Origin: Escherichia coli
GTDB lineage: Bacteria; Pseudomonadota; Gammaproteobacteria; Enterobacterales; Enterobacteriaceae
Direction: 5' to 3' (one strand)
Length of the DNA: 64,000 nucleotides
NCBI RefSeq assembly: GCF_003334335.1
Contig: NZ_QOWQ01000004.1
How positions within the stretch are numbered: position 1 is the first letter of the stretch; every line of letters begins with the position of its first letter. Both the position numbers and the translations under genes were made by a program. A model generated the notes under the pieces. That model ran no database searches. It saw only the letters and a program-made list of their open reading frames with translations, and had not been told where the DNA came from. Shown here in pieces: positions 58,787-63,986 of the stretch.

Positions 58787-59602
58787 TTACCAGCCTTTAA
58801 CAGCTCCGCCGTTAAACACTTTGTTTGCTGCTTCGTAAACTTCGTCAGACTGATAAGCCTGGACGAATTTCTTCACGTTCTCGGCGTCTTTGTTATCTTC
58901 ACGCGTCACGATCAGGTTTACGTACGGGGACTCTTTATCTTCAACAAAGATACCGTCTTTCGCCGGAGTCAGGCCAATCTGGCTGGCATAGGTGGTATTG
59001 ATAACTGCCAGAGCGATTTGCGCGTCGTCCAGAGAACGCGGCAGTTGCGGTGCTTCCAGTTCAACAATTTTCAGATTTTTGGGGTTCTCAACAACATCAA
59101 GAACGGTCGGCAGCAGGCCAACGCCATCTTTCAGTTTGATCAAGCCCACTTTTTGCAGCAGCAGCAGTGAACGACCAAGGTTAGTTGGGTCGTTTGGCAC
59201 GGCAACCTGCGAACCATCCTGCAGTTCATCCAGTGATTTGATTTTCTTGGAGTAACCAGCAATCGGATAAACAAAAGTGTTGCCTACTGCGACCAGTTTG
59301 TAGCCACGATCTTTCAGTTGCTGATCAAGGTACGGTTTATGCTGGAAGGCGTTGGCGTCGATATCGCCTTTGCTCAATGCTTCGTTTGGCAGAACATAGT
59401 CGTTGAAGGTTACCAGCTCAACGTCCAGGCCATATTTGTCTTTCGCAACTTTCTGCGCGACTTCTGCAACCTGCTGTTCGGCACCAACAATCACGCCGAC
59501 TTTAATGTGGTTTGGATCTTTTTCATCCTGACCGCAGCCTACCAGTGCCAGTGATCCGATCAGGGCTCCCACTGCCGCAAAGGTTTTGAATTTGAACGCC
59601 AT
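58787..59602 (-). CDS. metQ: D-methionine-binding lipoprotein MetQ
   Basis: 271-aa ORF with lipobox LVGC. Confidence 0.94.
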   Translation of the reverse strand: MAFKFKTFAAVGALIGSLALVGCGQDEKDPNHIKVGVIVGAEQQVAEVAQKVAKDKYGLDVELVTFNDYVLPNEALSKGDIDANAFQHKPYLDQQLKDRGYKLVAVGNTFVYPIAGYSKKIKSLDELQDGSQVAVPNDPTNLGRSLLLLQKVGLIKLKDGVGLLPTVLDVVENPKNLKIVELEAPQLPRSLDDAQIALAVINTTYASQIGLTPAKDGIFVEDKESPYVNLIVTREDNKDAENVKKFVQAYQSDEVYEAANKVFNGGAVKGW

Positions 59603-59641
59603 ACCTTATTCCTTCTTCAATTATTTATGTTGTGTTGAACG

Positions 59642-60295
59642 TTACTTGCGAGTGACAGCCCGGACGATGCGGTCGCCTGCGAACTGAATTAAATAAACCA
59701 GAATGACCAGCAATACCAGTACCGTATTCATCACCGTCGCGTTATAGCCGATGTAGCCATACTGATAGCCAATCTGACCTAAACCACCGGCACCGACTGC
59801 ACCACCCATCGCGGAATAACCGACCAGGGTAATCAGGGTGATAGTTGCCGCATTCACCAGACCCGGCAGCGCTTCCGGTAACAGCACCTTACGGACGATC
59901 TGCATCGGCGTGGCACCCATTGCGCGGGAAGCTTCAATTAACCCGGTTGGGATCTCCAGCAGAGCGTTCTCGACCATACGGGCAATAAACGGTGCTGCAC
60001 CAACGGTTAACGGAACAATCGCTGCCTGCAAACCAATCGATGTACCGACAATAACGCGGGTAAACGGAATCATCCATACAAGCAAGATAATGAACGGGAT
60101 GGAACGGAAAATGTTCACAATCGCAGAAACGGTACGATACAGCTTCGCGTTAGCAATAATTTGCCCCGGACGCGTGACATAAAGCAGAACGCCAACCGGC
60201 AGACCAATCACAAAGCCAAAAAAACCGGATACGAAGGTCATTGCCAGCGTTTCCCATACGCCACGAACCAGCAGCCACATCATCGGCTCAGACAT
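59642..60295 (-). CDS. metI: D-methionine ABC transporter permease MetI
   Basis: 217-aa hydrophobic ORF. Confidence 0.94.
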
Positions 60296-61319
60296 AACCC
60301 AGTACCTCTACTTTTACATGGTGTTCCTGCAGCCAGGCAATGGCGGCTTGCGTATCTTGTTGTGTGCCGTGCATTTCAGTCAGCATGATGCCGAACTTAA
60401 CGCCACCGGCGTAATCCATCTGCGCGCTAATAATGTTGTTGTTGACGTTGAAACGACGCGCGGTTTCAGAAAGCAGTGGGGCATCGACCGATTGACCGGT
60501 AAACTCCAGACGCAGCATCGGCACGCAGTCAGTAAATGGCTCCGCTTGCAGACGTTCCTGGTAATCTTCCGGGATATCCAGATGCAGGGTCGACTGAATA
60601 AACTTCTGCGCCAGCGGCGTTTTCGGATGCGAGAACACTTCACTTACCGTGTCCTGCTCGATCAGTTCTCCATTGCTGATGACCGCCACGCAATCACAAA
60701 TGCGCTTCACAACGTCCATTTCGTGGGTGATCAACAGAATCGTCAACCCCAGACGGCGGTTGATGTCTTTCAGCAGTTCGAGAATAGAACGTGTCGTTGC
60801 CGGGTCCAGCGCGCTGGTGGCTTCATCACACAGCAATACTTTGGGATTGCTGGCTAACGCACGGGCAATTGCCACACGTTGTTTCTGCCCACCGGAAAGA
60901 TTCGACGGGTAGCTATCATGCTTATCGCCAAGACCAACCAATGACAGCAATTCCGTCACGCGACGTTTGACCTCGTCTTTCGGTGTGTTGTCCAGCTCCA
61001 GCGGCAGAGCCACGTTGCCAAAAACAGTACGCGAAGAGAGCAGGTTAAAATGCTGGAAAATCATACCAATCTGGCGGCGAGCTTTGGTCAACTCGGATTC
61101 TGACAGCGTGGTCAGTTCCTGGCCATCGACCAGCACGCTACCCTCGGTTGGGCGCTCCAGCAGGTTTACACAACGTATAAGCGTACTCTTACCCGCGCCT
61201 GAGGCACCGATAACGCCATAAATTTGTCCAGCTGGCACATGCAGGCTGACGTTGTTCAACGCCTGGATGGTGCGGGTGCCCTGGTGGAACACTTTGGTGA
61301 TATTCGAAAGTTTTATCAT
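60288..61319 (-). CDS. metN: Methionine import ATP-binding protein MetN
   Basis: 343-aa ORF with Walker [10 protein letters not shown] and signature LSGGQKQR; its stop overlaps the metI start by 8 nt. Confidence 0.95.
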
Positions 61320-61401
61320 TGATTATTTATTATCGTCATTAAGTTAGTCGTGGCATCTCGAATGCCTGAAACGGGCAACGCCGTCAATGAAATGGATGTT
61401 A

Positions 61402-61425
61402 AGGCATCCAGACGTCTAAATCAAT
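61402..61425. promoter_or_regulatory. MetJ operator (met box) in the metN promoter region
   Basis: Perfect AGACGTCT at 61410-61417 flanked by degenerate 8-mers, about 90 nt upstream of the metN start. Confidence 0.6.
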
Positions 61426-61506
61426 CAGGTTTATGCGAAGAGCACTTTCTTGCAGGTCGAAACATGCGATACTAGCGTCACATGCCTTATTAAGGAGCTA
61501 TAAAAG

Positions 61507-62082
61507 GTGGCGAAGAGCGTACCCGCAATTTTTCTTGACCGTGATGGCACCATTAATGTCGATCACGGCTATGTCCATGAGATCGACAACTTTGAATTTA
61601 TCGACGGTGTTATTGACGCCATGCGCGAGCTAAAAAAAATGGGCTTTGCGCTGGTGGTAGTAACCAACCAGTCTGGCATTGCTCGCGGTAAATTTACCGA
61701 AGCACAGTTTGAAACGCTGACCGAGTGGATGGACTGGTCGCTGGCGGACCGAGATGTCGATCTGGATGGTATCTATTATTGCCCGCATCATCCGCAGGGT
61801 AGTGTTGAAGAGTTTCGCCAGGTCTGCGATTGCCGCAAACCACATCCGGGGATGCTTTTGTCAGCACGCGATTATTTGCATATTGATATGGCCGCTTCTT
61901 ATATGGTGGGCGATAAATTAGAAGATATGCAGGCAGCGGTTGCGGCGAACGTGGGAACAAAAGTGCTGGTGCGTACGGGTAAACCTATTACGCCTGAAGC
62001 AGAAAACGCGGCGGATTGGGTGTTAAATAGCCTGGCAGACCTGCCGCAAGCGATAAAAAAGCAGCAAAAACCGGCACAATGA
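61507..62082 (+). CDS. gmhB: D-glycero-beta-D-manno-heptose-1,7-bisphosphate 7-phosphatase
   Basis: 191-aa ORF with GTG start and HAD motif FLDRDGT. Confidence 0.93.
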
Positions 62083-62100
62083 TTAAAAGATGAGCGGTTG

Positions 62101-62160
62101 AAATAAAAATGCATTTTTCCGCTTGTCTTCCTGAGCCGACTCCCTATAATGCGCCTCCAT
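62101..62160 (+). promoter_or_regulatory. rrnH P1 promoter with AT-rich UP element
   Basis: UP element aaataaaaatgcattttt; -35 ttgtct (62123-62128), 16-bp spacer, -10 tataat (62145-62150), GC-rich discriminator gcgcctcc. Confidence 0.8.
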
Positions 62161-62232
62161 CGACACGGCGGATGTGAATCACTTCACACAAACAGCCGGT
62201 TCGGTTGAAGAGAAAAATCCTGAAATTCAGGG

Positions 62233-62260
62233 TTGACTCTGAAAGAGGAAAGCGTAATAT
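62233..62260 (+). promoter_or_regulatory. rrnH P2 promoter
   Basis: -35 ttgact (62233-62238), 16-bp spacer, -10 taatat (62255-62260). Confidence 0.75.
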
Positions 62261-62300
62261 ACGCCACCTCGCGACAGTGAGCTGAAAGCCGCGTCGCAAC

Positions 62301-62313
62301 TGCTCTTTAACAA
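62301..62313 (+). promoter_or_regulatory. rrn leader boxA antitermination element
   Basis: tgctctttaacaa matches the boxA consensus. Confidence 0.8.
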
Positions 62314-62444
62314 TTTATCAGACAATCTGTGTGGGCACTCGAAGATACGGATTCTTAACGTCGCAAGACGAAAAATGAATACCAAGTCTCAAGAGTGAAC
62401 ACGTAATTCATTACGAAGTTTAATTCTTTGAGCATCAAACTTTT

Positions 62445-63986
<1,542 letters not shown>

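Follow-up and report, generated by a model that had tools for sequence, protein, structure and literature searches.

The 24-bp array at 61394-61417 of the E. coli DNA analysed here (a stretch of 64 kb, which we call the window) is very probably the MetJ operator of the metNIQ promoter and represses it, with the divergent gene gmhB standing essentially outside MetJ control; we give this reading a probability of roughly 0.93. The array itself is already known, as it is the same DNA as the catalogued MetJ operator of metNIQ (metD locus).

The met-box array between metN and gmhB

The stretch around the spacer is E. coli K-12 MG1655 DNA at 100% identity, and the RefSeq annotation is concordant. Both the sequence and this annotation bear out the starting point of the original prediction, a 187-bp spacer between divergent metN and gmhB (Table 1). 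In MG1655 the gene order is rcsF, metQ, metI and metN on the minus strand, the spacer, gmhB on the plus strand and then the 16S rRNA gene of an rrn operon. Window positions were related to the genome by an offset of 161326, taken from the metN coding region given by Kim et al. (221614-222645 in NC_000913). Using 60900-62100 as the query, we found the locus region in 5425 of 5426 complete E. coli genomes. In the genome searches with this segment and with 61388-61430, three of the matching places were plasmid-borne and not chromosomal, and some genomes carry two copies of the metN-gmhB region.

Table 1. Features of the metNIQ-gmhB locus in window coordinates. Positions with a minus sign count from the metN transcription start site; mean column identity refers to the alignment of Enterobacterales spacers.
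Feature	Position	Strand	Details
metNIQ operon	58787..61319	-	encodes methionine ABC transporter; regulated target
metQ	58787-59602	-	methionine ABC transporter
metI	59642-60295	-	methionine ABC transporter
metN	60288-61319	-	ATG at 61319; methionine ABC transporter
Intergenic spacer metN/gmhB	61320-61506		187 bp, between divergent genes
metN 5'UTR	61320..61387	-	69 nt counting the start site; mean column identity 0.61
metN transcription start site (A)	61388	-	NC_000913 222714
Met box 3, GGATGTTA (TAACATCC on the metN strand)	61394..61401		3.63 bits, marginal; -13 to -6; contains the metN -10 hexamer
metN -10 hexamer, TAACAT	61396..61401	-	7 nt upstream of the start site; mean column identity 0.99
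Met box 2, AGGCATCC (GGATGCCT on the metN strand)	61402..61409		4.22 bits, degenerate; -21 to -14
metN promoter spacer, 17 nt	61418 to 61402	-	
Met box 1, AGACGTCT, perfect consensus	61410..61417		12.58 bits; -29 to -22
metN -35 hexamer, TTGATT	61419..61424	-	17 nt upstream of the -10; mean column identity 0.93
gmhB extended -10, TG-c-GATACT	61465..61473	+	TG 61465-61466, GATACT 61468-61473; not part of the MetJ operator
gmhB transcription start site	61480	+	U00096.2 222806; Cappable-seq score 31.4
gmhB ribosome-binding site, GGAG	61494-61497	+	
gmhB (b0200, = yaeD)	61507..62082	+	GTG start; D-glycero-beta-D-manno-heptose 1,7-bisphosphate 7-phosphatase; divergent neighbour

The perfect met box claimed for the spacer, AGACGTCT, is present at 61410-61417 and is the sole copy of this octamer in the 64 kb, counting both strands. 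Taken alone, the octamer is not significant: the expected number per window is 0.49 copies, and at least one copy turned up in 37 of 100 dinucleotide shuffles. Hence, we relied on an array-level matrix test instead, scanning every register of the whole window with the half-box information matrix published for MetJ. The thresholds were those of Augustus & Spicer 2011, which ask of each box no less than one quarter of the consensus score (3.15 bits) and of the total no less than the consensus score itself (12.58 bits). This position-weight-matrix scan for tandem boxes, the first check proposed with the original prediction, gave a single qualifying site across the 64 kb, the in-register tandem array GGATGTTA, AGGCATCC and AGACGTCT at 61394-61417, with 3.63 + 4.22 + 12.58 = 20.43 bits. 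The array thus contains the two or more in-register tandem boxes above the published thresholds by which a MetJ operator is recognised. A qualifying site of some score arose in 47% of 500 dinucleotide shuffles of the 64 kb; a score of 20.43 was matched in none of the 500, the shuffle maximum being 19.69.

Regarding the individual boxes, the second and the third are weak, with 4.22 and 3.63 bits against the threshold of 3.15. The original prediction had described degenerate repeats flanking the perfect box. This description holds on the metN side, where those two boxes lie, but not on the gmhB side, where the next octamer, AAATCAAT, scores -9.9 bits and is not a box. Nor is the next octamer on the far metN side, AATGAAAT, which scores -19.4 bits.

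In Table S1 of Augustus & Spicer 2011, the MG1655 entry for b0199 (metN) lists three boxes with 20.45 bits, a gap of 74 and the sequence agacgtctggatgccttaacatcc. Reverse-complemented, this sequence is that of window 61394-61417, and the gap is that between the array and the metN start codon in the window (61394 - 61319 - 1 = 74).

We also noted several features elsewhere in the locus. An Rfam search of 61000-62450, with E values up to 1, found no RNA family in the spacer. It returned a full-length match to Ysr197 (Yersinia sRNA 197) at 62076-62323 on the plus strand (145 bits, gathering score 167, E = 1e-36), which sits after the stop codon of gmhB and ahead of the 16S rRNA gene, probably in the rrnH promoter/leader region. 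Published sigma-54 ChIP-seq places a weak antisense intragenic site, TTGGCGTCGATATCGCC, in metQ at about 59360 on the plus strand (genome position 220686); the nearest gene downstream of it is gmhB, 2.1 kb off. The published papers on sigma-54 ChIP, Rac YdaT and RNase III that mention gmhB are silent on the metN/gmhB spacer.

Two back-to-back promoters and their response to MetJ

The metN start site was mapped by Kim et al. 2012 to minus-strand position 222714 (83 reads, 69-nt 5'UTR), for which they print the 50 nt upstream as TCGCATAAACCTGATTGATTTAGACGTCTGGATGCCTTAACATCCATTTCA; the start-site table of the same study (Kim et al. 2012) gives the Klebsiella pneumoniae metN orthologue an identical promoter sequence and a 71-nt UTR. 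The position therefore comes from a single E. coli data source together with the Klebsiella orthologue, there being no minus-strand Cappable-seq entry near 2227xx among the entries listed. Counting from this start site (61388), the three boxes occupy -29 to -6 and lie over the spacer and the -10 hexamer of the promoter TTGATT-17-TAACAT, so that the operator overlaps the promoter of its target. The 5'UTR showed no significant structure when its folding was compared with that of shuffled sequence (z = 0.29), and there is no evidence of a structured leader or a riboswitch in it. Farther into the operon, Kim et al. list a weak metI start site inside the 3' end of metN (60303 on the minus strand, NC_000913 221629, 14 reads, 8-nt UTR), which may be an internal promoter of metNIQ.

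On the other side of the spacer, Cappable-seq identified a strong plus-strand start site at U00096.2 222806, with a score of 31.4 (Ettwiller et al. 2016), and the -10 hexamer of gmhB ends 6 nt before this position, 61480 in the window. The start sites of metN and gmhB are thus back to back and 92 bp apart, and the boxes fall at -86 to -63 relative to that of gmhB, outside its core promoter. Two further Cappable-seq start sites on the plus strand are weak, each with a score of about 2; the one at 61341 (222667) is antisense to the metN 5'UTR and the one at 61552 (222878) is inside gmhB. A generic promoter scan gave hits at 61304-61333 (plus strand) and 61356-61329 (minus strand), which we rejected, as neither is supported by the start-site tables. 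The scan missed both real promoters because that of metN matches only 8 of 12 positions and that of gmhB has an extended -10.

Expression in the presence and absence of MetJ has been reported for E. coli and Salmonella. With lacZ fused to the 400 bp that precede E. coli metN, the wild type/metJ deletion ratio was 0.05, a 20-fold repression (Augustus & Spicer 2011), and an independent comparative study assigns metNIQ to the core MetJ regulon. When a metJ deletion strain of E. coli colonised stinkbug, metN, metI and metQ were increased by 3.98, 3.80 and 3.61 log2 units, respectively. Salmonella Typhimurium carries the identical 24-bp array, 75 bp from metN, and RNA-seq of its metJ deletion versus the wild type (Data Set S4 of a 2022 mBio study) gave log2 fold changes in LB and SPI-2 medium, respectively, of 5.84 and 4.27 for metN, 4.85 and 4.18 for metI and 3.86 and 3.17 for metQ. 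All three genes were thus derepressed in metJ mutants of both species (log2 3.6-4.0 in E. coli and 3.2-5.8 in Salmonella), which is the kind of expression data that the original prediction had pointed to as a check. Together with the catalogued site and the lacZ ratio, these published data on E. coli and Salmonella establish MetJ-dependent expression in vivo downstream of the array and support the repression of metNIQ that the original prediction had put forward. The strain can be taken to encode MetJ through its 100% identity to MG1655, in which metJ is b3938 in the regulon table of Augustus & Spicer 2011; the gene lies outside the window. A literature search for MetJ ChIP data yielded nothing usable.

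Whether gmhB responds as well had been left open by the original prediction, and the answer is mostly no. In the Salmonella data set, yaeD (= gmhB) changed by 0.44 log2 units in LB (p 0.071) and by 0.24 in SPI-2 medium (p 0.31), with adjusted p values of about 1.0 in both. Expressed as fold changes, metN rose 19- to 57-fold and gmhB 1.2- to 1.35-fold, the latter not significantly. In the stinkbug experiment, gmhB was not among the 38 genes with |log2FC| of at least 2.5 in the E. coli metJ deletion, a list that covers that cut-off only. It is also missing from the metbox catalogue of Augustus & Spicer, in which sites shared by divergent genes get two entries. The two marks of a shared operator, boxes over the divergent promoter and MetJ-dependent expression, were thus not found for gmhB. 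From the geometry of the spacer and the Salmonella expression data we can conclude that co-regulation of gmhB is unlikely.

Conservation of the boxes and of the gmhB neighbourhood

We collected 80 metN loci, from one genome per species with MetN, and examined the first 52 of them. Among these, gmhB lies divergent to metN in each of the 21 Enterobacterales loci, across spacers of 172-327 bp, and all 21 have a qualifying array of two to three boxes placed 61-103 bp from the metN start codon. The ten Vibrionaceae have three to four boxes with 26-35 bits, again with gmhB divergent, and the metN loci of Orbaceae and Haemophilus have two boxes each. No qualifying array was found within 400 bp upstream of metN in Rodentibacter and Salinivibrio, in contrast to their relatives; Rodentibacter nevertheless keeps gmhB divergent from metN. 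In Aeromonas, Psychromonas and an uncultured gammaproteobacterium, metN is preceded by boxes and gmhB is not adjacent. Both boxes and gmhB are missing at the metN homologues examined in Bacteroidota and the Halomonas group. Hence, the boxes travel with metN and not with gmhB, and they are conserved upstream of metN in genomes with MetJ and absent from the Bacteroidota and Halomonas-group homologues examined, the presence or absence of MetJ in those genomes being taken from the literature. Most Enterobacterales contigs end 0.8-1.4 kb upstream of metN, just past gmhB, as expected if an rRNA operon follows there too and breaks the assemblies.

These neighbourhoods bear on the first alternative to be weighed, that MetJ at 61394-61417 acts as a shared bidirectional operator, controlling gmhB too, so that LPS heptose synthesis would be tied to methionine status. 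In its favour, the two genes have a 187-bp spacer in common with palindromic boxes in it, and the divergent gmhB-metN arrangement has been kept across four families or orders (21 of 21 Enterobacterales loci, ten Vibrionaceae, two Pasteurellaceae and an Orbaceae genome), with no obvious functional link between gmhB, a gene of LPS heptose synthesis, and methionine import. A precedent is found in V. cholerae, where nhaP shares its operator with metH and is repressed as strongly as metH; besides, gmhB was slightly up in both media in the Salmonella metJ deletion. However, this rise is not significant in the very samples in which metN soared, the boxes lie beyond the core promoter of gmhB, and the catalogue, despite its double entries, does not contain the gene. 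There is also a precedent in the opposite sense, exbB beside metC, a neighbour whose spacer is bound and which is not regulated, and metN retains its boxes in genomes without an adjacent gmhB. We therefore consider a shared operator very improbable. As gmhB rises slightly in both Salmonella conditions, it may be subject to a small indirect coupling. There is a slim chance, marginally better than that of a shared operator, that metN derepression or MetJ occupancy modestly tunes the gmhB promoter, for instance via transcription-driven supercoiling. If true, such a coupling of metN and gmhB might explain why the divergent arrangement has been kept in at least four gammaproteobacterial families.

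At the level of single bases, the aligned Enterobacterales spacers (n = 20) show two sharply conserved blocks, the rest being variable, with a mean column identity of 0.59. The first block consists of TTGAYT and the boxes, with mean column identities of 0.93 for the -35 and 0.95 for the boxes, in which 18 of 24 columns are invariant; box 1 and box 3 each have 7 of 8 columns invariant in the 20 Enterobacterales. The second, on the gmhB side, is CATGCGATACT on the plus strand (mean column identity 0.95). In the more distant Enterobacterales, box 2 is stronger, reading AGACGCCT or AGACACCT, and the metN -35 is TTGACT. Within the species, the 43-bp core at 61388-61430 occurs unchanged in 5211 of 5426 complete E. 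coli genomes. We assigned the promoters of lineages other than E. coli by eye and not by mapped start sites. On this basis, Enterobacterales, Orbaceae, Haemophilus and Psychromonas share one layout, in which the -35 is followed by one base, two boxes (16 bp) that fill the 17-bp spacer, and the -10. The layout of Vibrionaceae and Aeromonas differs, the boxes abutting the upstream edge of a conserved TTGAC-N17-TAGCAT.

Since the first block begins right after the -35 and box 3 contains the -10, one might object that it is the metN promoter alone that is conserved, that its likeness to met boxes is incidental and that the effect of MetJ on metNIQ is indirect. The conservation of box 3 could indeed reflect promoter function alone, and indirect effects of MetJ do exist, such as those on metH through MetR and on folE. 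Promoter spacers normally vary, though; this one hardly varies and reads as a perfect consensus box. The score of the array was reached in none of the 500 shuffles. In Vibrionaceae the boxes persist at a different promoter position, which points to selection on the boxes themselves, and the fusion to the 400 bp upstream of metN is repressed 20-fold. All this leaves the objection with even less to recommend it than a shared operator. Least credible of all, the octamer could be a chance palindrome, expected as it is in 37% of shuffles, or the inverted repeat at 61393-61410, which a consensus scan flagged as a terminator-like stem (TGGATGCCTTAACATCCA, then TTTCATTG), could be a small minus-strand terminator or attenuator hairpin, but the T-run is poor, the stem is the internal symmetry of neighbouring met boxes and, lying at -22 to -5, upstream of the metN start site, is absent from the metN transcript, and we rejected it, with a protein-binding operator indicated by the statistics of the array, by its conservation and by the published genetics alike.

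Proposed mechanism and comparison with known MetJ operators

MetJ dimers bind cooperatively, each on an 8-bp box of its own, with S-adenosylmethionine acting as corepressor. For the operator at 61394-61417, we propose the following sequence of events. When methionine, and hence S-adenosylmethionine, is plentiful, MetJ-SAM dimers would bind cooperatively at -29 to -6, one per box. With two of the boxes clear and the third marginal, either two or three dimers would be expected on the DNA. Because the boxes lie over the spacer and the -10 of the metN promoter, we infer that bound MetJ-SAM would sterically exclude RNA polymerase from the sigma-70 promoter TTGATT-17-TAACAT, and the methionine importer would not be made. 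When methionine is scarce, MetJ would leave the boxes and metNIQ would be transcribed. The divergent gmhB is transcribed from a promoter of its own, with an extended -10, and its start site is 92 bp away from that of metN. The operator would thus be an ordinary one, a standard case of repression by promoter occlusion.

The metNIQ operator adds nothing new to the MetJ regulon, as member or as variant; it is already in the published catalogues, and between the b0199 entry and 61394-61417 there is no difference in sequence. Hence, our results are mainly a confirmation of a textbook-style repressor site that fills a promoter spacer and a -10 element. What we add to the catalogued site is where it falls with respect to the published start sites of metN (-29 to -6) and gmhB (-86 to -63), along with the gmhB comparison, a small gain in the form of a base-resolution layout of two back-to-back promoters.

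Compared with the other MetJ operators of E. coli, those of metA, metBL/metJ, metC, metE/metR, metF, metK, mmuP and ybdH/mtnE likewise consist of in-register tandem 8-bp repeats resembling AGACGTCT in promoter regions. They have two to four boxes and 15-31 bits, a range in the middle of which the metN site falls with its 20.4 bits; it differs from them in having one perfect box and two weak ones. Regarding the divergent neighbours, those at metB/metJ, metE/metR and ybdH/mtnE belong to the MetJ regulon, whereas gmhB, the neighbour of metN, is not a member. A further likeness is with the metC/exbB spacer, in which met boxes are also shared with an unrelated divergent gene: there, MetJ binds the DNA and exbB is unregulated in vivo. 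The non-regulation of gmhB is drawn from the Salmonella RNA-seq and the geometry of the spacer and not, unlike that of exbB, from a dedicated reporter assay. Like exbB, the LPS gene gmhB shares its spacer with met boxes and yet is not a MetJ target, which calls for caution in assigning one regulator to both genes of a divergent pair.
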